Below, piece after piece: positions 4,058-60,818 of a stretch of 64,000 nucleotides of DNA. The notes below the pieces were generated by a model that saw nothing but the letters and a program-made list of their open reading frames with translations, was not told the origin of the DNA and did no database searches. Both the position numbers and the translations under genes were made by a program. Each line of letters opens with the position of its first letter. The stretch's first letter is position 1. Source of the DNA: Peptostreptococcaceae bacterium (GTDB taxonomy: Bacteria; Bacillota; Clostridia; Peptostreptococcales; Filifactoraceae). The stretch lies in assembly GCA_030528675.1 (NCBI GenBank), contig JAUMYL010000017.1:6860-70859 (forward strand), in the 5' to 3' direction.

Positions 4058-4244
4058 AGAGTTGAGAGAAATGACGGTTTTGGAACTGGGAACGAAACTG
4101 GGAGAGCTGAAGGGTGAACTCTTTAACCTTCGTTTTCAGCTGGCTACAGGACAGTTGGATAATCCTGTGAAATTGAGATATGTAAGAAAAGATATAGCGC
4201 GTGTGAAGACCATCCTTAATGAGAAAGAAAAGGCAAAGGCATAG
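4047..4244 (+). CDS. rpmC: 50S ribosomal protein L29
   Basis: Internal ATG of track ORF 3972-4244. [40 protein letters not shown]... is L29. Start overlaps the rplP stop (ATGAAAGCTAA). Confidence 0.92.
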
Positions 4245-4269
4245 GCTGCATCAGAGAAAGGAGGATATC

Positions 4270-4527
4270 ATGAGAGAGTCCAGAAGAAAAGTACGAATCG
4301 GATATGTGACATCGGACAAGATGGATAAGACCATCGTTGTTTCAATCGTAGAGCTCGTGCGCCACCCGCTGTACGGAAAAGCGGTAAAGCGAACGGTCAA
4401 ATATAAGGCACATGATGAAGAAAACACCTGCAAGATCGGTGATCGCGTAAAGATCATGGAAACTCGTCCTCTGTCGAAAGACAAGCGATGGAGACTCGTG
4501 GAAGTATTGGAAAGAGCTGCTGAATAA
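4270..4527 (+). CDS. rpsQ: 30S ribosomal protein S17
   Basis: [24 protein letters not shown]... is the typical S17 N-terminus. GGAGG RBS precedes this ATG. The track ORF begins at an upstream in-frame ATG (4219) inside rpmC. Confidence 0.88.
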
Positions 4528-4550
4528 GCGGGAAGAGAGGAGGTAATACA

Positions 4551-4919
4551 ATGATACAACAGGAAACTCGTCTGAAAGTTGCGGATAACTCCGGCGCAAA
4601 AGAAATCCTCTGCATCAGAGTACTCGGCGGTTCTTTCAGAAGATCCGGAAATATAGGAGATGTCATCGTCGCTTCGGTCAAAAGTGCAACACCGGGCGGC
4701 GTTGTTAAAAAAGGAAAAGTGGTTAAGGCGGTTATCGTGCGCAGCAAACAGGGGCTTCGCAGAAAAGACGGAAGCTATATCAAATTCGATGAAAATGCTG
4801 CCGTGATCATCAAAGATGACAAGACGCCGAGTGGAACCCGTATATTCGGACCGGTGGCAAGAGAGCTTCGAGACAAGCAGTTCATGAAGATCATTTCCCT
4901 TGCGCCGGAAGTGTTATAA
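4551..4919 (+). CDS. rplN: 50S ribosomal protein L14
   Basis: 122 aa [18 protein letters not shown]... L14 signature. Confidence 0.96.
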
Positions 4920-5272: not shown

Positions 5273-5815
5273 GTGGCTTCAAGACTGAAACAAAAATATA
5301 AAGACGAGATCGTAAAAGCGCTGACGGAGAAGTTCGGCTACAAGAATGTCATGGAAGTTCCCAAGCTCGAGAAAGTAGTCGTGAACATGGGAATCGGAGA
5401 AGCGAAAGACAATGCGAAGGTACTGGACAGTGCCGTATCTGAGCTGGAGCTGATCACAGGACAGAAAGTGGTCGTGACCCGCTCGAAGAAATCCGTCGCG
5501 AACTTCAAGATAAGAGAAAAGATGCCGATCGGAGCGAAAGTGACGCTCAGAGGCGAAAAGATGTTCCACTTCGTGGACAAACTGCTCAACATCTCCCTGC
5601 CGAGGGTAAGGGACTTCCGAGGAGTGAGCAAGGACTCCTTCGACGGAAGAGGAAACTATGCGATGGGAATCAAAGAGCAGCTGATTTTCCCGGAGATCGA
5701 ATACGATAAAATCGATAAGGTGAGAGGAATGGACATCATCTTCGTGACGACCGCCAAGACCGATGAAGAGGCAAGAGAACTACTCAGACTGATGGGAATG
5801 CCGTTTGCGAAGTAA
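5273..5815 (+). CDS. rplE: 50S ribosomal protein L5
   Basis: 180 aa, GTG start, [14 protein letters not shown]... L5 signature. Confidence 0.94.
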
Positions 5816-5830
5816 GAAGGAGGGAAAGTC

Positions 5831-6016
5831 GTGGCAAAGAAAGCAATGATTCTGAAACAGCAGAAAAAGCAAAAGTATGCGACAAGAGAATATACAAGAT
5901 GCAACCTCTGCGGCAGACCGCATGCGGTACTTCGAAAATTCGGAATTTGCCGTATCTGTTTTAGAGAACTCGCGTACAAAGGCCAGATACCGGGTGTTCG
6001 CAAGGCGTCCTGGTAA
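5831..6016 (+). CDS. rpsN: 30S ribosomal protein S14 type Z (zinc-binding)
   Basis: 61 aa, GTG start. CxxC...CxxC zinc ribbon ([20 protein letters not shown]). Located between rplE and rpsH. Confidence 0.92.
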
Positions 6017-7025: not shown

Positions 7026-7394
7026 TTGTTCAAGAAGGTAGATAAAAAGGCAAACCGTATGGCAAGGCATAAAAGAGTGCGCAAGAGCGTGCTGGGAACT
7101 CCTGAAAGACCGAGACTGAATGTATTTCGAAGCTCGAATCATATATATGCTCAGCTTGTGGATGATGTGAACCGGGTGACTGTAGCGGCCGCTTCCACGA
7201 TTGACAAGGAGATCAAAGGAAGCCTTTCCGCGACCGGCAACAAAGAAGCGGCGCAGAAAGTCGGAGAGCTGATCGCAAAGAGAGCGCAGTCCAAAGGGAT
7301 CGAAGAAGCGGTCTTCGATCGAAGCGGATACCTCTATCACGGCAGAGTGAAGGCTCTGGCGGACGGAGCGAGAGAAGCGGGACTGAAATTCTAA
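7026..7394 (+). CDS. rplR: 50S ribosomal protein L18
   Basis: 122 aa. TTG start 10 nt after AAGGAG. ...[24 protein letters not shown]... L18 signature. Confidence 0.9.
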
Positions 7395-7412
7395 CGATAA
7401 GGAGGGGAAAAG

Positions 7413-7919
7413 ATGCTGAAAAAACCGATAGATGCAAGAAAATTGGATATCGAAGAAAGAGTAGTGAGCATCCGCAGGGTCACTAAGGTCGTAAAAGGCG
7501 GAAGAAACTTTCGCTTTGCCGCACTCGTTGTCGTAGGAGACCGAAACGGACATGTGGGAGTCGGAACGGGAAAAGCGACCGAGGTGCCGGAGGCGATCCG
7601 CAAAGCCGTAGAAGACGCGAAAAAGAACCTGATCGCAGTGCCGATGGTCGGAACGACAATCCCGCACAGGATTCAGGGAAGATTCGGCGCAGGACAGGTG
7701 CTGATCATACCGGCGCCGGAAGGTACCGGAGTGATCGCCGGAGGGCCGGTGCGCGCGGTGCTCGAGCTTGCGGGACTCAAGGACGTGCGTTCGAAGTCGC
7801 TGGGCACCAGCAACGAGAGAAACGTGGTAAATGCGACGATGCAAGGTCTTTCTTCGCTGAGAAAAATCGAAGATGTAGCAGCCCTGAGAGGTAAAAAAGT
7901 CGAAGATCTTTTAGGTTAG
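7413..7919 (+). CDS. rpsE: 30S ribosomal protein S5
   Basis: 168 aa. ...[22 protein letters not shown]... S5 dsRBD signature. Confidence 0.96.
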
Positions 7920-7925
7920 GAGGCG

Positions 7926-8111
7926 ATGGAAATGGCAAGCTTGAAGATAACTCTCGTGAGAAGCGTGATAGCGACAAAACCGAATCAGAGAAAAACGGTG
8001 CGTGCACTTGGACTGACAAAGAGAGAGCAGACCGTTGAAAAGCCGGACAATCCGCAGATCCGCGGAATGATCGAAACCGTAAAACATCTTGTGAAAGTCG
8101 AAGAAGCATAA
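7926..8111 (+). CDS. rpmD: 50S ribosomal protein L30
   Basis: 61 aa. ...[25 protein letters not shown]... L30 signature. Confidence 0.93.
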
Positions 8112-8128
8112 TAAAGGAGGTGCAATAG

Positions 8129-8575
8129 ATGAAACTACACGATCTGAAACCTGCAAAAGGCGCAGTCCGAGCGAAGCGAAGAATCGGTAGAGGTACCGCT
8201 TCCGGTCAGGGTAAATCCGCCGGACGAGGAGGCGACGGACAGTGGTCGCGCTCCGGAGCGGGAGTGAGACCGGGCTTCGAGGGAGGTCAGATGCCTCTGT
8301 ACAGAAGACTTCCAAAGCGCGGATTCAACAACTACGAATTCGAGACGAGATACTCGGCAATCAATATTGATCGCCTGAATATATTTGAAGACGGAACGGA
8401 AGTGACTCCGGAGCTGTTGGTGGAGCGACGAGTGATCCGAAAAATGGCGAAAGACGGAGTCAAAATTCTGGGAAATGGAAATCTTGAGAAGAAACTGACC
8501 GTAAAAGCGAACAAGTTTACGAAATCAGCCGCAGAAAAGATAGAGGCCGCTGGAGGAAAGGCTGAGGTGATCTAA
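8129..8575 (+). CDS. rplO: 50S ribosomal protein L15
   Basis: 148 aa [22 protein letters not shown]... L15 signature. Confidence 0.95.
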
Positions 8576-9862
8576 TTGTTCAGTACAATTCGAAACGCGT
8601 TCAAGATCCCGGATCTTCGCAAGAAGCTCGTCTTTACGATCTTGATGCTCGTCGTCTTTCGAGTGGGAAATGCGGTCACTGTCCCGGGAATCGACGTCAA
8701 GAGAGTGGCGGAGATCATGAACCTCGGAGGGGATGCAGGCCTTGCAGGACTGTACGACCTGTTCTCCGGAGGGGGGCTTGGCCGGTTCAGCATCTTTGCC
8801 CTGAGCATCACCCCCTATATCACGGCTTCAATCGTGATTCAGCTTTTGACCGTAGCGATCCCGGCGCTGGAAGAGATGCAGAACTCCGGGGAAGAAGGAC
8901 GAAAGAAACTGCTGCAGTATACAAGATATCTGACCGTAGTGCTCGCGCTGATTCAGGCGACGGCGATGGGACTTGGATTCTTCGGTTCCGCCGTCGTGGA
9001 CAATTCCGCCCTCAGCAAGATCACCATCGTGCTGACCCTGACTGCCGGAACCGCCTTTTTGATGTGGCTGGGCGAGCTGATCACGGAAAAAGGGATCGGA
9101 AACGGAATCTCGATCATCATCTTCGCAGGGATCGTATCCAGAATTCCCAGTGCGACGATCCAGACGATTCAGCTTGTGAAAAACGGTGAACTGAACCTGA
9201 TCCAGATTGCAGGCTTCCTTGCAGTGTCGCTGGCGATCATCGTCGGCGTCATCATGGTGCTGCAGGGAGTGCGCAAGATTCCCGTGCAGTATGCGAAGAG
9301 AATGGTCGGCAGAAAGTCCTACGGCGGACAGTCGACCCATATTCCGATGAAGATCAACCAAGCGGGCGTCATCCCCGTTATCTTTGCGGTATCGGTGCTC
9401 GGATTTCCGGTCACCCTGGGGTATTTCATCAAAAATGAAGCCTATGCCAAGTTCGTTTCCACTTGGTTTTTGCCGAGCGGAATGAGCTGGGGGACTCTGA
9501 TTTACATCGTGGCGGAGTTCCTGTTGGTCGTATTCTTCACCTATTTCTACATCTCGATTACTTTTAAGCCGGACGAGATCGCAGACAATATGAAAAATGC
9601 CGGAGGATTCATTCCGGGCGTGCGGCCGGGCAAACCGACGGAGGAGTTCCTCATGACGGTACTCAACAGACTGACCTTTGCGGGAGCGATCTTCCTCGGC
9701 GTCATTGCGATCCTGCCGACCGTGATGTCCGCAGTTGCAAAAGTCGGCTCCTTCCAGCTGGGCGGAACCTCTCTGCTCATCGTCGTCGGAGTTGCGATAG
9801 AGACTATGAAACAGATTGAAGCACAGATGGTCATGAGACATTATCAGGGCTTCCTCAAATAA
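8576..9862 (+). CDS. secY: preprotein translocase subunit SecY
   Basis: 428 aa, 10 TM. TTG start immediately after the rplO stop, preceded by AGGTGA. MFSTIRNAFKIPDLRKKLVFT... SecY N-terminus. Canonical location. Confidence 0.93.
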   Translation: MFSTIRNAFKIPDLRKKLVFTILMLVVFRVGNAVTVPGIDVKRVAEIMNLGGDAGLAGLYDLFSGGGLGRFSIFALSITPYITASIVIQLLTVAIPALEEMQNSGEEGRKKLLQYTRYLTVVLALIQATAMGLGFFGSAVVDNSALSKITIVLTLTAGTAFLMWLGELITEKGIGNGISIIIFAGIVSRIPSATIQTIQLVKNGELNLIQIAGFLAVSLAIIVGVIMVLQGVRKIPVQYAKRMVGRKSYGGQSTHIPMKINQAGVIPVIFAVSVLGFPVTLGYFIKNEAYAKFVSTWFLPSGMSWGTLIYIVAEFLLVVFFTYFYISITFKPDEIADNMKNAGGFIPGVRPGKPTEEFLMTVLNRLTFAGAIFLGVIAILPTVMSAVAKVGSFQLGGTSLLIVVGVAIETMKQIEAQMVMRHYQGFLK

Positions 9863-53468: not shown

Positions 53469-54257
53469 ATGGATATCTTACTGAAGGTACAAAAGCTCAA
53501 AAAGAGTTTTGGAAGTACGCAGGTGCTGCACGGACTGGATTTTGAGGTGCGAAGGGGTGATATCGTCGGCTATATCGGTTCCAACGGATCCGGCAAGAGC
53601 ACGACGGTCAAGCTGATCCTCGGACTGCTTTCCGGTTACGAAGGAGAGATCGAGATCTTCGGGGAGAACATCCGCAGCGGCGACATCGGCTACAAGAGGA
53701 GGATCGGCTATGTCCCGGAGGTGGCGGAGCTCTATGAGACGCTGACGCCGAGGGAGTATCTGCGCTTTCTGTCACGGATCTATGAGACGGAGGAGGCGGA
53801 TTTTCTCGGAAGAGCGCAGGATATGCTGGATATCTTCGGGATCGCGGGTTCTTTTGACAGCCGTATCAGCTCTTTTTCGAAGGGGATGAAGCAGAAGCTC
53901 GTCATCGTCTGCAGCATGGTTCACAACCCGGATATCCTGTTTCTGGATGAGCCGCTGAGCGGACTGGACGCCAACAGCGTCGCGGTCTTCAAGGAGGTCG
54001 TCGACAGTCTTGCGAAGTCCGGCAAGACGATATTCTATTCGTCTCATATCATGGAACTGGTGGAAAAGATCAGCAGCCGGATCATCCTGCTTAAAAACGG
54101 CAGCATCCTTGCGGATCGGTCGATGCAGGATCTCGTGCGGGAAAACCGGGATCACTCTCTTGAAGAAGTGTTCAACGAGCTGACGGGCTTTGAGCAAAAG
54201 CATGACCTTGCGGGACGTTTTGTCGATTCGGTGCTGGGGGGAGAGCGTCATGAATGA
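53469..54257 (+). CDS. ABC transporter ATP-binding protein
   Basis: Internal ATG after AAGGAGGAAAAAG. Walker A GSNGSGKSTT, signature FSKGMKQKLVIVCSM, Walker B ILFLDEP. Confidence 0.88.
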   Translation: MDILLKVQKLKKSFGSTQVLHGLDFEVRRGDIVGYIGSNGSGKSTTVKLILGLLSGYEGEIEIFGENIRSGDIGYKRRIGYVPEVAELYETLTPREYLRFLSRIYETEEADFLGRAQDMLDIFGIAGSFDSRISSFSKGMKQKLVIVCSMVHNPDILFLDEPLSGLDANSVAVFKEVVDSLAKSGKTIFYSSHIMELVEKISSRIILLKNGSILADRSMQDLVRENRDHSLEEVFNELTGFEQKHDLAGRFVDSVLGGERHE

Positions 54258-55896
54258 AAGATTCGTCTTGACTCTGCTGGGATTTTTTCGAGGCGTCTAT
54301 GAAAGAGCGGGCGTCGACTACGCTCAGATGACGGAGATCCTGAGGCTCAAGCTGATCATGGACAAAAGACGGGTCAACCGCTCTCTGAATCCCAATGAGC
54401 AAAGTCGGGAGAAGAATTATTTCCTCTGGAATATCCTGACGATGATGTTCATGGGCGTCATTTCCGCGACGCTCATGATCTACAATTTCCCTGCGTTTCT
54501 CAAGATCAATCTCTTTTTGATCATGGTGATGACTCTGATGCTGTCGATGTTCATCTCGGACTACTCCGCAGTGCTGCTCGATCTTCGGGGCAAGAATCTC
54601 TTTTATGCAAGGCCGATAGGACAGAAGACTCTCAGCGCGGCCAAGATGACTCATATCGTGCTTTATATAAGCGCCTATGCGCTGGCGCTCTGTCTGCCGG
54701 GGATCTTTTTCTCCGCCTTTCGATTTGGTATTCTGTTCGGTCTGATGCTGACCGGAGCGGTTCTTTTTGCGACGGTGACGACGGTGTTTTTCTCGGGCAC
54801 TCTCTACTTCCTGCTGCTGAGGACTTTTTCCGGAGAGAGGCTCAAGGATATCCTCAATTATTTCCAGATCGGCGTCACCCTTTTTTTCATTCTGGCCTAC
54901 CAGATCATGCCGAGGCTGTTTTTGCTGGACGGACTGAGATATAAGGAGAGGTTCTGGATGTTTTTCCTTCCTTCTTCCTGGTTTTCCGCTCCCTTTGCGG
55001 TCGTCTTTGAAGGAAAAGCGACTCTGTTTATGGGGCTTTTGTCGCTGACAGGGCTGATCCTGCCGATTCTGCTGATTTTTGTCTACCTTGGGAAGATCGC
55101 TCCTTCCTTCGAGAGCTGTCTGGAACGCCTCTCAATGAGTGAGACGGCGGCGGAAAGCCTCTCCGGATTTTGGAACCGGCTGATCCGACTGAGTGCAAGG
55201 GGAAGTCAGGAGAGGGCTTTTATGGAGCTGATTCTCATCAACACGAAGAGAGACCGAAATTTCAAACTGAGGATCCTGCCTCAGATGGTCGTTGCTTCCC
55301 TCTTTCCTCTGATCATGCTCGCCAATCAGATGCTGCGGGACTGGGAGAACTTCCTGCAGACTCTGCCGCAGCAGCCTTATTATATGGCGCTCTACGGCTG
55401 CGGATTGATTACAGGCGGTCTCTATACGTATATGACGATCAGCGATTTCAGCAAGGGGGCGTGGATCTACGGTGCTCTTCCGATCTCAAGACGGTCGGAT
55501 ATCTATTTTGCTTCCTACAAGATCGCGATCCTGCAGTACATTCTCCCGGTTCATCTCTTCATTGGAGGAATGTTTCTCCTGCTGTACAGAGGGAGCGTCT
55601 GGATGGGGATACTGACCGTGATCCTGAACAATATCATCAGTTTTCTCTGGGCTTCGGTCATCAGGCGCTCGGAGCTGCCTCTTGCCGCTTCTCTGGAGAC
55701 GGCGAAGAGCGACAGTATCATTCGTCTGCTGCTTCTGATGCCTGTGCTCGGTCTGATGGCGGGACTGCACTATTTCATCGTCGCCATTGGAAAGGCGGAG
55801 CCGCTGTATATGCTGCTGATTTCGGCATCCGTCCTCCTGCTGAGCTGGAGATGGCTGATCCCGAAGATTCTGGAAAGGGAGGATTCGGTTTTATGA
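54250..55896 (+). CDS. large polytopic membrane protein, putative permease partner of the upstream ABC ATPase
   Basis: 548 aa, more than 10 predicted TM. ATG overlaps the ATPase stop by 8 nt. No recognisable family motif. Confidence 0.6.
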   Translation: MNERFVLTLLGFFRGVYERAGVDYAQMTEILRLKLIMDKRRVNRSLNPNEQSREKNYFLWNILTMMFMGVISATLMIYNFPAFLKINLFLIMVMTLMLSMFISDYSAVLLDLRGKNLFYARPIGQKTLSAAKMTHIVLYISAYALALCLPGIFFSAFRFGILFGLMLTGAVLFATVTTVFFSGTLYFLLLRTFSGERLKDILNYFQIGVTLFFILAYQIMPRLFLLDGLRYKERFWMFFLPSSWFSAPFAVVFEGKATLFMGLLSLTGLILPILLIFVYLGKIAPSFESCLERLSMSETAAESLSGFWNRLIRLSARGSQERAFMELILINTKRDRNFKLRILPQMVVASLFPLIMLANQMLRDWENFLQTLPQQPYYMALYGCGLITGGLYTYMTISDFSKGAWIYGALPISRRSDIYFASYKIAILQYILPVHLFIGGMFLLLYRGSVWMGILTVILNNIISFLWASVIRRSELPLAASLETAKSDSIIRLLLLMPVLGLMAGLHYFIVAIGKAEPLYMLLISASVLLLSWRWLIPKILEREDSVL

Positions 55897-55898
55897 AG

Positions 55899-55965
55899 GA
55901 CTTCGAAAATCCTTCGACGGCGCGGAATCGCCTTCGGAAAAATCGGATTTGCGAAGATTCTGCAG
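55899..55965 (+). repeat. dispersed repeat family B copy (related to 59950-60015)
   Basis: ACTTCGAAAATCCTTCGACGGCGCGGAATCGCCTTCGGAAAAATCGGATTTGCG versus ACTTCAAAAATCATTCGACGGCGCGGACTTGCTTTCGGAAAAATCGGACTCGCT. Confidence 0.75.
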
Positions 55966-56033
55966 CTACAGATAGGCAGCGGTATAAGAGCTTTTTATAA
56001 AATGAATATAATCGAAAAAAGGAGATGAACTCT

Positions 56034-57632
56034 ATGCAACTTTCTTTTTACGGAGCGGCTCGTGAGGTCACGGGAAGCTGCTATCTTCTGGAAGCCTGCG
56101 GGAAGAATATCCTGATCGACTGCGGGATGGAGCAGGGGCTCGGCGCCGACAACACCAAAGAGCTGCCGGTACCGCCGGTCAGGCTCGACTATGTTTTTCT
56201 GACTCATGCGCATATCGACCACTCAGGGAGACTGCCGCTGCTTGCCAAACTCGGCTTTGCGGGTGAGATTTACGCGACGGAGGCGACGACGGACCTGTGT
56301 CAGATCATGCTGAGAGATTCCGCCCATATTCAGGAGTTTGAGGCGGAGTGGCGCAACCGTAAGGGCAAACGCTCCGGAAAGGGAGGTTTTGAGCCTCTGT
56401 ATGGGATGGGAGATGCGGAGGCGATCATGGAGACCTTCATCCCCTGTACCTACGACCGGCTCGTCGAGGTAGCGGAGGGGATCCGTATCCGTTTCATCGA
56501 CGCGGGACATCTGCTGGGTTCCTCTTCGATTGAAGTCTGGATAGAAGAAGAGGGCGTCTCCAAAAAGATCGTCTTCTCAGGGGATGTCGGCAATATCAAC
56601 CAGCCGCTGATCAAAGATCCGACTTATATCAAAGAGGCGGACTATGTAATCGTTGAATCGACCTACGGAACCCGTCTGCACAATCCGCCTCTTGACTATG
56701 CGACCAATCTCGCCTCTGTGATCCAGCGAACCTTTGACCGGGGCGGCAATGTGGTCATCCCTTCTTTTGCAGTGGGCAGGGCGCAGGAGCTTCTGTACTT
56801 TATTCGAAATATCAAGGCGAAAGGCATGGTCAAGGGGCATGAGGGCTTCAAGGTCTATGTCGACAGTCCTCTTGCCAACGAGGCGACGGCGATCTTCCGG
56901 GACAACACGGAGATCTTCGATGCGGATGCGACGGAGCTGATTCGTCAGGGGATCAACCCGATCAGTTTTGAGGGACTGAAACTCTCCGTGACGGCGGACG
57001 ACTCCCGTGCGATCAACTTCATCGACGAGCCCAAGGTGATCATCTCCGCCTCGGGCATGTGCGAAGCCGGAAGGATCAAACACCATCTCAAGCACAATCT
57101 CTGGAGGGAAGAAAGTTCGATTGTCTTTGTCGGCTATCAGGCGGTCGGAACGACGGGACGGGCGATTGTCGACGGGGCGAGCGCGGTCAAGCTCTTCGGC
57201 GAGGAGATCGAGGTTCATGCAGAGATCGTCACTTTGGAAGGCATCAGCGGTCATGCGGATCAGAAAGGGCTGCTGAACTGGCTGGACGCCTTCGATAAAG
57301 TGCCTGAGCGCATCTTCGTTACCCATGGAGACGCGGAGGTCAGCCTCGCCTTTGGGGAGATCCTCAGAGAGCGCTACAAGACCCGGGTTTCTGTGCCGAA
57401 GTACTCGGAGCTTTACGATCTTGCGACCGGAGAGATGCTCAGAGAAGGCTACCAGCAGGAGAAGAAGGCCGCGGCGATCCAGAGGACGGAGGAAGGCACC
57501 GTCTATCAGCGTCTTCGTGCAGCCGGAGATCGTCTGGTGGAAGTGATCCTGCACAATAAGGGCGGAGCGAACAAGGATTTGGCGAAATTCGCCGATCAGA
57601 TCCTTGCCCTTGCGGAAAAATGGGATCGGTAG
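56034..57632 (+). CDS. MBL-fold beta-CASP ribonuclease (CPSF-73/RNase J-like, RMMBL C-terminal domain)
   Basis: HxHxDH = HAHIDHSG. Motifs ESTYG, GHADQ, THGD. About 530 aa. Confidence 0.8.
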   Translation: MQLSFYGAAREVTGSCYLLEACGKNILIDCGMEQGLGADNTKELPVPPVRLDYVFLTHAHIDHSGRLPLLAKLGFAGEIYATEATTDLCQIMLRDSAHIQEFEAEWRNRKGKRSGKGGFEPLYGMGDAEAIMETFIPCTYDRLVEVAEGIRIRFIDAGHLLGSSSIEVWIEEEGVSKKIVFSGDVGNINQPLIKDPTYIKEADYVIVESTYGTRLHNPPLDYATNLASVIQRTFDRGGNVVIPSFAVGRAQELLYFIRNIKAKGMVKGHEGFKVYVDSPLANEATAIFRDNTEIFDADATELIRQGINPISFEGLKLSVTADDSRAINFIDEPKVIISASGMCEAGRIKHHLKHNLWREESSIVFVGYQAVGTTGRAIVDGASAVKLFGEEIEVHAEIVTLEGISGHADQKGLLNWLDAFDKVPERIFVTHGDAEVSLAFGEILRERYKTRVSVPKYSELYDLATGEMLREGYQQEKKAAAIQRTEEGTVYQRLRAAGDRLVEVILHNKGGANKDLAKFADQILALAEKWDR

Positions 57633-57646
57633 GAGATTGAAAGAAA

Positions 57647-58777
57647 ATGCTGATTTTTAGCGAATTGATCAAAAAATTTGACAAAATCAGAGAGTATATG
57701 AGAGATTTTTATGTCTACGGCTTTCGAACGCGGGAAAACTTCGGAAGCCGAAAGAGCCTGCGCAGCTATGACAACGAGAGGCGGAGAATCGAAAGCTATC
57801 TGGAGGACTTCATGTCCTTTCGCCAAAATGACAGGGGAAAGATCGTCTTTTTGAGCGCAGACAGCAGGGATATCTCCGCCAATCCCTTTTACAGAGCTTT
57901 TAAGGCCAAAAGTTTCACCAAAAAAGACATCAGCCTGCACTTCATTCTGCTGGACATTTTGCAGGAGGGTATCAGACTGTCTTTATCCGAGATTATGGAG
58001 AAGATCGGGGAAGAGTATCTGAGTTTTTTTGAATTTCCGATGGAGATCGACGCGGCGACGGTGCGCAACAAGCTGCGGGAATACGAAGGAGAAGGCCTCT
58101 TCGTCTCGGAAAAAGTCGGAAAAACTCTGCTCTACCGAAGGAGAGAAGAGGAATCGGAGAGTCCGCCCTCTATTGACGCGATCCGTTTTTTCAGCGAGGC
58201 GGATCCCGCCGGCGTCGTCGGCAGTTTTCTTCTGGACCGATATGAGGAGAAACGCCCTGTAAATCCGCCCTTTTCCTACAAACACCACTATATTATGCAC
58301 GCTCTCGACAGCGAGATCTTCTGCCTTGCGGCGGAGGCGATTGCCGCGGAGGAGACTGTGGAGATCCTTCGCCGCGTCCGCAGCGGCAGGGAAGAAAAGG
58401 AAACCGTCTTTCCGATCAAGATCCTCCTCAGCGTCCAAAGTGGAAGGAGTTATCTTTCGGCATACCATTTTCGAGACAGACATATTTTCAACTACCGTCT
58501 CGATCATATTCTCTCTCTGCGTCGGACGGGAGAGCGCCGCGCCGCCCTCGGAATGCGGGAGAGGTGGAAGGAGCTGATGGACGAGGCCTGGGGAGTGTCC
58601 TTCGGAAAGAAGGGGCCGCCGGAGAGCGTCGAGATGATCCTTCTGATCCCGCCGCAGGAGCGTTTTGTGCTGGAAAGGATCCTTCGAGAGGGAAGACATG
58701 GGCGTGTCGAAGAGCTGGGAGAGGGAAGATACCGCTATGCGGTAAAGGTCAGGGACTCTCGGGAGATGCTCCCCTAG
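57647..58777 (+). CDS. HTH-WYL-domain transcriptional regulator; reading frame interrupted by in-frame TAG inside the C-terminal WCX-like segment (homology continues in-frame to 58954)
   Basis: wHTH in the middle region. WYL core SYLSAYHFRDRHIFNYRLDHI (WYLxA...FRLDRI pattern). After the TAG at 58775-58777 the same frame reads LRTFLGRIEQIRFSDEKVEKL, which aligns with the WCX motif LLSFGPMIEVIEPESVREKI of the paralog downstream. Confidence 0.6.
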   Translation: MLIFSELIKKFDKIREYMRDFYVYGFRTRENFGSRKSLRSYDNERRRIESYLEDFMSFRQNDRGKIVFLSADSRDISANPFYRAFKAKSFTKKDISLHFILLDILQEGIRLSLSEIMEKIGEEYLSFFEFPMEIDAATVRNKLREYEGEGLFVSEKVGKTLLYRRREEESESPPSIDAIRFFSEADPAGVVGSFLLDRYEEKRPVNPPFSYKHHYIMHALDSEIFCLAAEAIAAEETVEILRRVRSGREEKETVFPIKILLSVQSGRSYLSAYHFRDRHIFNYRLDHILSLRRTGERRAALGMRERWKELMDEAWGVSFGKKGPPESVEMILLIPPQERFVLERILREGRHGRVEELGEGRYRYAVKVRDSREMLP

Positions 58778-58943: not shown

Positions 58944-59912
58944 TTGATCTTTCATGAGATCTACGGTCTGTATTACAGGAGTGTCGAGAAGATCCTAAGG
59001 GCGATTCTCGAGCGAAGGAGATCCGGCGGACCGCCTCTGTCGGGCAAGGAAGCGAGGAAGCTCATTGATGAGACCGCTTTCTCGGAAAGCAGCATGGCGA
59101 TCCTTTCGGCGATTGAACAGGAAGAGTGGCAGATGATCCGAAAGGATATGAGCAGTCCGATACGCCATTTGCCCTCGCGGCCCCGGACGCTTTTGGAAAG
59201 ACGCTGGCTGCAGGCGATTGCGGGAGATGAAAAAATGAGACTTTTCGGGGAAGTGCCTCTTGTTTCAGAGGAAGATCCTCCGCTGTATCGCAGAGAAGAC
59301 CTCTTTCGAATCGACCGTCCCTCCGACGGTGATGACTTTTCCGATCCGGGGTATATTGAAGTGTTTCAGGCGTTGTTGCGCGCGGTCAAGGAGGAAAAAC
59401 TCGTTCAGATTGCCTTTCTTTCGGCGAAAGGGTTTCGTAAAAAAGGGCTGTTCTTTCCCGGGAAGCTGGAATACTCGGCAAAAGATGAAAAGTTTCGCCT
59501 GATCGCAAAGAGATCTTCTGCCTATGGCGTGGTCTCTGATATCATCGTGACGATCAATCTTGCGCGGATCCTCTCTGTCACCGTCATGGAAGAGATCACG
59601 CCGGAGTTTTTGATCGGAGACTTCCGCTTTGAGGAGCCGAAAGAAAGCGTCCTGCTGCGCTTGTATGACCGCAGAAACGCTTTAGAGCGTGCCTTGCTTC
59701 ATTTTGCGGACTTCGAAAAAGAGACCGAGCAGATAGAGGGACTTCTCTATGAAATGAAACTGCGTTTTGCAAGCAAGGACGAGTCCGAGATCCTGATCCG
59801 CCTGCTCTCCTTCGGGCCGATGATTGAAGTGATCGAGCCCGAGAGTGTTCGGGAGAAAATCCGACAGAGACTGCAGAGGCAGGCGGAACTTTGGGGAAGA
59901 AGAAGGTGTTGA
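58944..59912 (+). CDS. WYL/WCX-domain regulator paralog
   Basis: 322 aa. TTG start after AAAGGGGAGAAG. C-terminal ...LIRLLSFGPMIEVIEPESVREKIRQRL is a typical WCX segment. Confidence 0.55.
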   Translation: MIFHEIYGLYYRSVEKILRAILERRRSGGPPLSGKEARKLIDETAFSESSMAILSAIEQEEWQMIRKDMSSPIRHLPSRPRTLLERRWLQAIAGDEKMRLFGEVPLVSEEDPPLYRREDLFRIDRPSDGDDFSDPGYIEVFQALLRAVKEEKLVQIAFLSAKGFRKKGLFFPGKLEYSAKDEKFRLIAKRSSAYGVVSDIIVTINLARILSVTVMEEITPEFLIGDFRFEEPKESVLLRLYDRRNALERALLHFADFEKETEQIEGLLYEMKLRFASKDESEILIRLLSFGPMIEVIEPESVREKIRQRLQRQAELWGRRRC

Positions 59913-59937
59913 AGTTGCGAATTCAAGTTCGCAACTT
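59912..59937. repeat. perfect 10-bp-stem hairpin AAGTTGCGAA-ttcaag-TTCGCAACTT (copy 1; spans the stop codon of the WYL paralog)
   Basis: Identical hairpin repeated at 60177-60202. Confidence 0.85.
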
Positions 59938-59949
59938 CACATTGCAGAC

Positions 59950-60015
59950 AAACTTCAAAAATCATTCGACGGCGCGGACTTGCTTTCGGAAAAATCGGAC
60001 TCGCTCACCGGAAAT
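59950..60015 (+). repeat. dispersed repeat family B copy
   Basis: See 55899-55965. Confidence 0.75.
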
Positions 60016-60079
60016 TTCGAACGAGCTCCAAGCGGCGTCCTGCCGCTTTCGCTCTAAAATCAGCGTCCTGCTGATTTTT

Positions 60080-60170
60080 CTGAAATTTCATCGGCTCGCT
60101 CCTCTCGATTTTTTCACGAAAGTTCCTCATCTTCGTCTCATGAATTTTGAAGTTTGTCCGCTTTGTCTTC
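60080..60170 (+). repeat. dispersed repeat family C copy (contains a family-A core fragment CTGAAATTTCATCGG)
   Basis: See 43269-43365. Confidence 0.7.
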
Positions 60171-60176
60171 AGTCTG

Positions 60177-60208
60177 AAGTTGCGAATTCAAGTTCGCAAC
60201 TTTTTTTT
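60177..60208 (+). terminator. strong intrinsic terminator (hairpin copy 2 plus T8)
   Basis: AAGTTGCGAA-ttcaag-TTCGCAACTT followed by TTTTTTTT. Confidence 0.8.
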
Positions 60209-60327
60209 CATGAAAAAAATCAGGATTTGGGATATTCTATATTTGCGGGAGTGATGACGAGAATATCTTTTTTCCGAGGTGCTTGAGGCTCTGCCGTAAA
60301 GTATGCCTTTCCCTCCTGCGGAAAAAT

Positions 60328-60352
60328 GCAGGTTCGAATCCTGCTCAAAGCG
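60328..60352 (+). other. orphan canonical tRNA T-arm plus acceptor-3'-like tail (GCAGG-TTCGAAT-CCTGC-TCAAAGCG) with no tRNA body
   Basis: Exact 5-bp stem / 7-nt TTCGAAT loop. An upstream CCTGC (60315-60319) could alternatively pair with GCAGG. No D-arm or anticodon arm is reconstructable upstream. Confidence 0.5.
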
Positions 60353-60818
60353 TGGTGCTTTGCGTTGGCCGAAACGGGTTTCCTCGAGAAACCACTGAAA
60401 AAGTCAAAGAGCAAAAAAACCGGATTTCCTGCCGAAGACCTGCAGTCAGGGTCTGAAGCGAGCAGAGCTCTGCCTTGTCGAAAGACGGATACCGCAGGAG
60501 CAAAATCAGTCCGAGGGTGCGGAGAAAGGAGCGCGCTCTCCGGCTGATGAGGTTTCCGCTCAAGCCTTTCGCCGCAGAGCTTTGTGGAAGACGGCGGGCG
60601 AAGGAAAGATCCCATGGAGGATCATGTGAAGCAAATAGAGTATAATGTTCATGAGCAGTTACATCCTTTCGGCAATGTTTGTTTTGCGATGATCATTATA
60701 CCGGAAAAAGGGAGTGCTCTTTTATGTGCAAACCTCCGTAAATAAAGGTTTTTAGATAATAAGAATTAAAAAAACAGATAGTGTTTGACACTACCGGACG
60801 GTACGAGGGGGAGATAGA

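Follow-up and report, generated by a model that had tools for sequence, protein, structure and literature searches.

To our knowledge, the Ro protein with its Y RNAs is the only RNA–protein accessory of the bacterial RNA ligase RtcB that has been studied so far. Here, we describe a tract in a 64,000-nucleotide stretch of DNA from a Peptostreptococcaceae bacterium (contig JAUMYL010000017.1; hereafter the window, in whose numbering all positions are given unless a related locus is named), in which a perfect tRNA T-arm lies upstream of genes for an SPFH/Band-7 protein and RtcB. We give a probability of about 0.6 to the reading that this T-arm is part of a composite non-coding RNA, which likely serves the soluble SPFH protein of an RtcB repair system as its cofactor or scaffold.

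Two kinds of RNA invite comparison with this tract. YrlA, a bacterial Y RNA that Ro/Rsr binds, has a permuted tRNA architecture, which has been described and crystallised (PMC4201824, bioRxiv 10.1101/312249). In M. smegmatis, RNase P cuts the closed acceptor loop of YrlA, and CCA is added (PMC4201824). A decoy role was proposed for YrlA, and Salmonella YrlA remained uncleaved while tRNAs were cleaved (PMC7790460). The other kind is a Band-7-associated tRNA-like RNA ("b7a-tRNA") encoded next to RtcB, predicted by Burroughs and Aravind in 2016 and, in the words of a later preprint, said to "strongly resemble an authentic tRNA" (bioRxiv 10.1101/312249). According to that preprint by Wang and colleagues (2018), b7a-tRNA was experimentally unvalidated, and YrlA-type RNAs sometimes adjoin Band-7 genes (bioRxiv 10.1101/312249). 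Our literature searches found no later study of the Band-7-associated RNA, and the RNA of SPFH–rtcB operons is not catalogued in Rfam.

Three Covarying Modules Upstream of the SPFH Gene

The preliminary description of this DNA had pointed out the sequence GCAGG-TTCGAAT-CCTGC as a T-arm. The arm is indeed there, and it was the only match when the window was scanned on both strands for five paired bases, a G–C pair closing the loop, and a loop fitting TTCRANY. It belongs to only one of the three conserved modules that the tract holds (Table 1), the other two having been overlooked. We refer to the 5' stem-loop as M1, to the tRNA-like part with the T-arm as M2, and to a three-helix domain at the 3' side, with GGAUACCG invariant, as M3; together, they would form an RNA of about 340 nt, covering positions 60245–60586.

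Related loci were collected by a search with the SPFH protein, keeping one genome per species, which gave 62 loci with an identity of at most 56%, mostly from Clostridia and some from Bacteroidota and Spirochaetes. Cultured carriers among them are Lachnoclostridium sp. An131 and An138 (L039, L040), Lachnospiraceae CE91-St56 (L041), Breznakiella homolactica RmG30 (L057), and Danxiaibacter flavus (L050). Of the 62 loci, 56 extended far enough upstream of SPFH to be judged, and 48 of these had one or two T-arms at 200–650 nt before its start. The T-arm density in this zone was 2.46 per kb, about 150 times higher than the 0.016 per kb found elsewhere in the same loci, a background that counts real tRNAs too, and ARAGORN called none of the SPFH-upstream T-arms in these loci a tRNA. 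The opposite search started from the RNA only: metagenome sequences were scanned with the pattern GGTGC-N16-21-GTATGCC-N20-50-GGTTCGAATCC, which combines M1 with the T-loop. Eighteen of its 94 matches were true tRNAs, while an SPFH gene was present on the same strand within 1.2 kb downstream in 57/63 of the non-tRNA matches that had at least 1.3 kb of downstream DNA. Since the SPFH-first and the RNA-first searches agree, the association of the RNA with SPFH holds both ways. In total, roughly 120 loci were found.

M1 was found at nearly all related loci as GGUGC, a hairpin of 16–21 nt, and GUAUGCC. Its closing helix in the window consists of the pairs G78–C07, G79–C06, U80–G05, G81–U04 and, beyond a UA bulge, C82–G01 (last two digits of the positions). 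In a MAFFT alignment of 36 loci, 93.4% of the cells at these pairs were paired, as compared with 31–58% for slid partners, and the covariation score was 0.49, as compared with at most 0.13 for slid partners (0/500 shuffles as high). Compensated variants, such as AGUAC/GUAUACU and GUUGC/GUAUGAC, occur among the loci.

In an alignment of 22 loci, M3 appeared as three helices around the conserved unpaired blocks CCUUG, GGAUACCG, GCCARAG, UUCCGC, CUNAA, and CCG; of about 50 upstream regions, 30 contain the octamer GGATACCG. Here, 86.7% of the cells were paired (39–46% when slid), and the covariation score was 0.72 (at most 0.21 when slid). With R1, the model of M3, each locus gave a single hit, invariably on the + strand and immediately before SPFH; 11 of these loci were not in its seed. 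Neither M1 nor M3 had a match in Rfam at any threshold tried.

Two further candidate features of these modules were rejected. The GUAU(N)CC of M1 is complementary to GGAUAC of M3, but the variants are uncompensated (GGAUAUCG in loci L013, L018, and L023; GCAUACC in L033 and L037), and the pairing was dropped. A Ro-binding motif, GNCGAAN0-1G, occurs as GUCGAAAG at 60478–60485 in helix P2 of M3; we attribute it to chance, as relatives vary freely there.

The tRNA-Like Module in Relatives and in the Window

In canonical relatives, M2 consists of the T-arm, an immediately following closed hairpin of unrelated sequence, the dinucleotide UA, and a D-arm, for example UAGCUNAGUGGUANAGC. A closing stem of 5 bp is formed by the bases 4–6 nt before the T-arm and the bases directly after the D-arm; it was complete (5/5) in 25 of 37 loci, in contrast to 12% in a mismatched-locus control. 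In a MAFFT alignment of 23 loci, 91.3% of the cells of the four helices were paired (36–56% when slid), the covariation score was 0.67, and all four helices covaried. By this covariation, M2 in the relatives is a circularly permuted cloverleaf, the acceptor ends of which are closed by a loop. Some relatives additionally have an anticodon-like hairpin with a 7-nt loop after the D-arm.

A model of this canonical permuted tRNA, R2, built from 14 relatives, found many non-seed members at 32–82 bits. In the window and in its closest relatives, L110 and L001, it scored about 17 bits; the match was confined to the T-arm in the window and L110 and covered the full model in L001. As R2 matches only the T-arm there, the window copy of M2 is a degenerate variant. 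The window, L001, and L110 have the same string of T-arm, hairpin, hairpin with GG in the loop, and hairpin, with different sequences of the stems. The acceptor-like hairpin is CGAAC/GTTCG in L001 and CTGAGT/ACTCAG in L110, the D-like hairpin is CTTTT-ggttaa-AAAAG in L001 and CTT-tggttggag-AAG in L110, and the last one, H4, is GGG/CCC in L001 and AACCT/AGGTT in L110, with equivalents in L020, L014, L003, and L013. The D-like hairpin of the window was recognised by neither R2 nor the Rfam YrlA model, and MAFFT did not align the variable acceptor hairpins of the window subfamily consistently.

The heptamer TCAAAGC after the T-arm, previously taken for a free acceptor-like strand, actually forms the 5' side of the closed hairpin CAAAGC-GUGGU-GCUUUG, and no CCA follows this acceptor-like element. 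In almost all loci, a hairpin begins 0–2 nt after the first T-arm, and the sequences of these hairpins are unrelated; a separate test for a hairpin after the T-arm did not discriminate, since 66% of random positions passed as well. On the 5' side of the T-arm, the hairpin in the variable position has an equivalent in L001 (TTCCC...GGGAA). Its GGAAA strand (60320–60324) can alternatively pair with UUUCC at 60379–60383 (5/5), which would close a permuted cloverleaf in the window. The extra CCTGC, from which two mutually exclusive hairpins had been derived, is present at 60315–60319, and the minimum free energy structure of a 94-nt segment favours the alternative CCUGC...GCAGG hairpin. However, this CCTGC is missing from L001 and L110, and the alternative hairpin is not conserved in relatives. 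Positions 60308–60321 of the hairpin 5' of the T-arm are also complementary (12/14) to 60492–60505, directly after GGAUACCG, a pairing that would link the M2 side with M3; it was not seen in L001 or L110 and was rejected.

ARAGORN called 0 tRNA and 0 tmRNA genes in the whole 64 kb, and no Rfam family reached its gathering score in the window. At a permissive threshold, the Rfam tRNA model (RF00005) matched 60288–60352 with 18.4 bits, as compared with a gathering score of 29. This alignment has 5/7 pairs of an acceptor stem, formed by TCAAAGC with GCUCUGC at 60288–60294, no D stem, and the anticodon-like hairpin UUUCC-CUCCUGC-GGAAA. The earlier statement that no 5' acceptor strand pairs upstream is, thus, formally contradicted by the tRNA model, but the pairing conflicts with the hairpin that covaries in 36 loci. 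We rejected the cloverleaf, as its acceptor 5' strand falls inside the M1 hairpin, its 3' strand forms a hairpin of its own, and no equivalent pairing was seen in L001 or L110. With a score below 29 bits and without the normal order of acceptor, D, and anticodon elements, the tract is not a tRNA gene, in agreement with the preliminary description.

That description had also considered a tRNA 3' end left at an attachment site. A decayed tRNA gene, or a 3'-end duplicate produced by the integration of a mobile element (the partner tRNA would end in GCAGGTTCGAATCCTGCTCAAAGCG), could explain a perfect T-arm followed by a 7-nt stretch that pairs 5/7 upstream in the tRNA model, and real tRNAs do lie just upstream in the Bacteroidota loci L050, L051, and L056. 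However, the same architecture is present in the same place at more than 100 loci belonging to several phyla, its stems showing compensatory changes, and the flanking M1 and M3 covary. No integrase or phage gene was found in the 22 kb upstream (the part of the window from 38 to 64 kb was examined); the neighbours there are LigA, a methyltransferase, an Opp transporter, an amidase, and RNase PH–Ham1. A search with a 25-mer for the partner of the putative attachment site gave no exact match in metagenome or viral collections. Conserved synteny, compensatory changes in every helix, the lack of an integrase in the upstream part, and the lack of an exact copy of the 25-mer in the two collections contradict an integration scar, and we find a tRNA remnant of either type hardly credible. 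A chance origin of the T-arm is excluded as well, judging by its recurrence at the same syntenic position in 48 of 56 related loci and by its stem, which covaries and shows all four Watson–Crick types at pairs 2 and 3 across the loci.

Table 1. Features of the tract and of its neighbourhood, with positions in the window.
Feature	Position	Strand	Basis or remark
beta-CASP nuclease gene	56025-57632	+	Pfam
WYL-type regulator gene with WYL domain	57647-58777	+	Pfam
WYL-type regulator gene with WCX domain	58944-59912	+	Pfam
906-bp gap enclosing the T-arm tract	59913-60818		
28-nt perfect palindrome TGAAGTTGCGAATTCAAGTTCGCAACTT followed by T8	60175-60209	+	resembles terminator of upstream WYL genes
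Predicted sigma-70-type promoter, -35 ATGAAA and -10 TATTCT, 17-nt spacer	60210-60215 and 60233-60238	+	
M1: GGUGC, apical hairpin GGC-UCU-GCC with purine-rich internal loop, GUAUGCC	60278-60307	+	covariation
Variable-position hairpin UUUCC-CUCCUGC-GGAAA, 5' of T-arm	60308-60324	+	sequence
M2, T-arm, 5-bp stem GCAGG/CCUGC and loop UUCGAAU	60328-60344	+	sequence; model R2 local match 17.0 bits
M2, closed acceptor-like hairpin (AS) CAAAGC-GUGGU-GCUUUG	60346-60362	+	sequence
M2, short D-like hairpin CGUU-GGCCGA-AACG, GG in loop	60363-60376	+	degenerate counterpart of D-arm UAGCUNAGUGGUANAGC
M2, hairpin H4 GGUUUC-CUCGA-GAAACC	60377-60393	+	centroid structures
M3, three-helix domain with GGAUACCG	60461-60586	+	MAFFT and RNAalifold, covariation
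M3, helix P1	60462-60473 with 60574-60585		
M3, helix P2	60477-60485 with 60565-60572		
M3, helix P3	60505-60511 with 60542-60548		
M3, conserved unpaired blocks CCUUG; GGAUACCG; CUCAAG; CCG	60473-60477; 60487-60494; 60559-60564; 60572-60574		
SPFH/Band-7 gene, 366 aa	60819-61919	+	Pfam Band_7, E = 1.5e-26
RtcB RNA ligase gene	61953-63155	+	Pfam RtcB, E = 9e-65

Comparison with YrlA and Other tRNA-Like RNAs

The canonical relatives share with YrlA the order of closing stem, short variable linker, T-arm, closed acceptor hairpin, UA, D-arm, and closing stem. Both RNAs are encoded within an RtcB operon, and both are probably processed from the operon transcript. The core of the Rfam YrlA model (RF02553, positions 23–86 of 114) matched L042, L043, and L025 with 37.1, 38.1, and 30.4 bits, respectively. 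However, no relative reached the gathering score of 69 bits, and the Ro-binding stem of YrlA (model positions 1–22 and 87–114) was unmatched in relatives. The partner gene is also different: it encodes SPFH, and no TROVE (Ro/Rsr) domain was detected with Pfam among the seven genes flanking the tract in the window or in the checked genes of L028 and L038. Finally, the SPFH-operon RNAs, unlike YrlA, have M1 and M3 in addition, or a second T-arm unit. The window itself has the T-arm and the closed hairpin of the permuted domain, with a possible D-like hairpin and closing stem. The proposal of a Y RNA- or YrlA-like RNA next to rtcB was, thus, correct in that a covarying family tied to SPFH–RtcB exists and that its relatives have the YrlA order. 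Membership in YrlA itself does not follow: architecture and, by analogy, function appear to be YrlA-like, yet the score, the Ro neighbour, and the Ro-binding stem are all missing.

The Band-7-associated tRNA-like RNA is closer in its genomic setting. Like it, the tract is a non-coding tRNA-like element that adjoins SPFH and rtcB in the absence of a Ro protein, lying directly upstream of the SPFH (60819) and rtcB (61953) genes. The difference is in the resemblance to tRNA, which is slight in the window module, as indicated by the negative ARAGORN result and the low score with the tRNA model. Few relatives come near to a tRNA (L029, with 29 bits in the tRNA model, and L108, which was called a tRNA). 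By its genomic association, the window RNA fits a degenerate member of this predicted kind. M1, M3, the promoter box described below, and the pair of WYL genes may not have been described before.

The tRNA-like domain of tmRNA and the tRNA-like structures at the 3' ends of viral RNAs also imitate the T-arm and elbow of tRNA, and weak matches to tmRNA models do fall on the T-arm of relatives. In contrast to the tract in the window, these structures have a free CCA 3' end that is aminoacylated.

Probable Role of the RNA in the SPFH–RtcB Operon

The SPFH protein of the window has no predicted membrane segment (highest 19-residue Kyte–Doolittle hydropathy, 0.8). Searches of its N-terminus and of the N-termini of the WYL proteins with Pfam and NCBIfam revealed no additional domain. 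The order of genes and RNA among the loci is either RNA–SPFH–rtcB, as in the window, or rtcB–RNA–SPFH (class B), where rtcB sits between the conserved promoter and the RNA. The latter order argues for a processed RNA over a plain 5' leader.

From these features, we infer transcription, processing, SPFH binding, and a repair role of the RNA. Transcription of the + strand would start near 60245 from a conserved, probably regulator-dependent promoter, and the RNA would extend at least to 60586, most likely being co-transcribed with SPFH/Band-7 and rtcB. It would then act as the partner of the soluble SPFH protein in RtcB-dependent RNA repair, paralleling Y RNA and Ro; by analogy with Ro/Y RNA in the rsr-yrlBA-rtcBA operon of Salmonella, a cofactor or scaffold is the most likely role. 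In the complex, the tRNA-elbow mimic would offer a point of attachment to factors that recognise tRNA, or to tRNA that is damaged. A bolder version of this reading, which we hold tentatively and at somewhat less than even odds, is that M1 and M3 are modules not described before and, with the permuted tRNA-like unit, form a subunit of about 340 nt of a cytosolic SPFH–RtcB particle, in which M1 or M3 would take the role of the Ro-binding stem.

The tract could alternatively be a cis-acting leader of the SPFH–rtcB mRNA that acts, for instance, by sensing a small ligand or tRNA that is uncharged or damaged, or by setting mRNA stability, in which case there would be no separate RNA. In window-like loci, the RNA starts at the operon promoter, M3 ends only 40–60 nt before the ribosome-binding site in many loci, and no intrinsic terminator was found on the + strand in the interval from M3 to the start of SPFH, all of which would suit a leader. 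Class B loci, with the RNA inside the operon between rtcB and SPFH, would not, and neither terminator/antiterminator pairing nor pairing that would sequester the ribosome-binding site was apparent. Moreover, about 230 extra bases separate M3 from the start codon in the window, and YrlA, the closest characterised relative, is a processed, protein-bound RNA. On balance, we consider a leader unlikely.

Still less probable, in our opinion, is a role of the tRNA-like module as a decoy, as a sentinel substrate, or as a ligation substrate of RtcB. An invading nuclease that targets tRNA would cut it, or it would be processed in its closed acceptor loop; RtcB would then rejoin it or make it circular, or the WYL regulators would be alerted to damage by the cut. 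The module is, after all, a permuted tRNA with acceptor ends joined by a loop, and in M. smegmatis YrlA it is this loop that RNase P cuts before the addition of CCA (PMC4201824). The anticodon-like 7-nt loop hairpin of some relatives and the decoy role already proposed for YrlA (PMC7790460) point in the same direction. However, the window module has no equivalent of an anticodon loop, its elbow is degenerate, and Salmonella YrlA was not cut when tRNAs were (PMC7790460).

Several observations weigh against a composite RNA that partners SPFH. Its start, its 3' end, and any processing are themselves deduced from sequence. The T-arm is absent from L016 (about 5572–5958) and L059 (about 5704–5962), which keep M1 and M3, the 5' module being GGUGC...GUAUGCC or GUAUUCC alongside the GGAUACCG domain; the tRNA-like part may, therefore, be dispensable and is not universal in the family, and the indispensable core may be M1 and M3 rather than the tRNA mimic. 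In the window, the D-like hairpin and closing stem are weak and compete with local hairpins, R2 scores nothing there but the T-arm (17 bits), and the YrlA model had no match in the window up to E = 10 in searches of 1.2 kb and 151 nt. Folding of the single sequence was no better than that of shuffles (z = −1.1 for 60245–60600 and −1.3 for 60305–60398), and another run gave z = −1.8; we judged single-sequence z-scores uninformative. The window is one of the seed sequences of R1, and identity with b7a-tRNA rests on a second-hand description of the 2016 prediction.

The locus belongs to a second design, one without Ro, in which the gene of a soluble SPFH protein invariably follows a structured RNA. 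Such RNAs lie in front of SPFH and rtcB in many bacteria of the gut and the environment. This design is common in gut Clostridia and is also present in Bacteroidota and Spirochaetes; RtcR appears to be absent from these Firmicutes loci. The three modules supported by covariation, the promoter box, and the WYL pair offer handles on the question of whether SPFH proteins can act as RNA-binding scaffolds and on RNA-damage sensing in Firmicutes, and the modules could serve as seeds for an Rfam family.

Promoter Region and WYL Regulators

The 3' half of the palindrome TGAAGTTGCGAATTCAAGTTCGCAACTT is a conserved promoter-proximal box, AGTTCGCAAC-T7, which was found once per locus, on the + strand, in 27/63 sequences with a strict pattern. 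Directly after it lies the predicted promoter of the window, too weak to register in a consensus promoter scan. The geometry (A/G)TGA(A/T)A, 17 nt, TAnnAT recurs in L001, L002, L010, L011, L013, L017, L034, L038, and L044. The flanking hairpin mentioned in the preliminary description is present as well, with arms at 60230–60238 and 60260–60268.

The pair of WYL genes is kept beside the operon, co-directional or divergent, in 34/62 loci, and also in many metagenome loci. PafBC, the mycobacterial activator of the DNA-damage response, is made of two WYL paralogues. The likeness extends to the adjacency of WYL/WCX paralogues, conserved beside the operon, and to a conserved box shortly before a weak −35 element; the difference is that the putative target here is an RNA-repair operon. 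The two WYL proteins are candidate regulators, which would control the operon via the AGTTCGCAAC box.

Other Observations at the Locus

Two identical 28-nt perfect palindromes, at 59910–59937 and 60175–60202, flank an insert of 237 nt. A single long, imperfect hairpin is the predicted fold of the insert (−125.7 kcal/mol, z = −10.6); at its tip there are two small hairpins, the loops of which both read CGUCCUG, and a weak match to the Rfam Bacillaceae-1 family (20.7 bits; cut-off, 35). As relatives such as L110 and L013 have a single palindrome in this place, the insert appears to be peculiar to this genome. It may represent the 3' untranslated region of the WYL genes or a small element that was inserted there.

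The bases that separate M3 from the SPFH start codon in the window (60587–60818) are missing in most relatives. They contain an inverted repeat of 13 nt (60640–60652 and 60689–60701) that spans the TATAAT at 60641–60646, which had been noted before and is present. Also found there were a hairpin that includes a run of A and, at 60785–60790, a perfect TTGACA. No convincing second promoter was found in this segment.

Directly upstream of the WYL genes, there is a stand-alone metallo-beta-lactamase nuclease of the beta-CASP type. Its best NCBIfam matches were Cas14 of type VII CRISPR (417 bits; cut-off, 800) and archaeal aCPSF1, and the gene was not present at any of the 62 related loci. Further upstream, an open reading frame of 568 aa (54190–55896) matched nothing in Pfam or NCBIfam and had no relative at any of the 62 loci; as a frame of 276 aa (55170–56000) overlaps it, the gene call there is uncertain.

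Among the related loci, L038 has two genes of RlaP-family nucleotidyltransferases (PF10127, associated with RNA repair) after SPFH, at 7169–8853, which reinforces the view that this type of locus is an RNA-repair system. In the Bacteroidota loci L050, L051, and L056, the genuine tRNA genes lie directly upstream of the tRNA-like RNA and SPFH, at 5289–5362 in L051, at 5143–5216 in L056, and in L050 (Danxiaibacter flavus, 4114–4859) an array of eight tRNAs, Glu, Gln, His, Ile-UAU, Lys, Asn, Tyr, and Phe. They could be a set of spare tRNAs attached to the repair operon.

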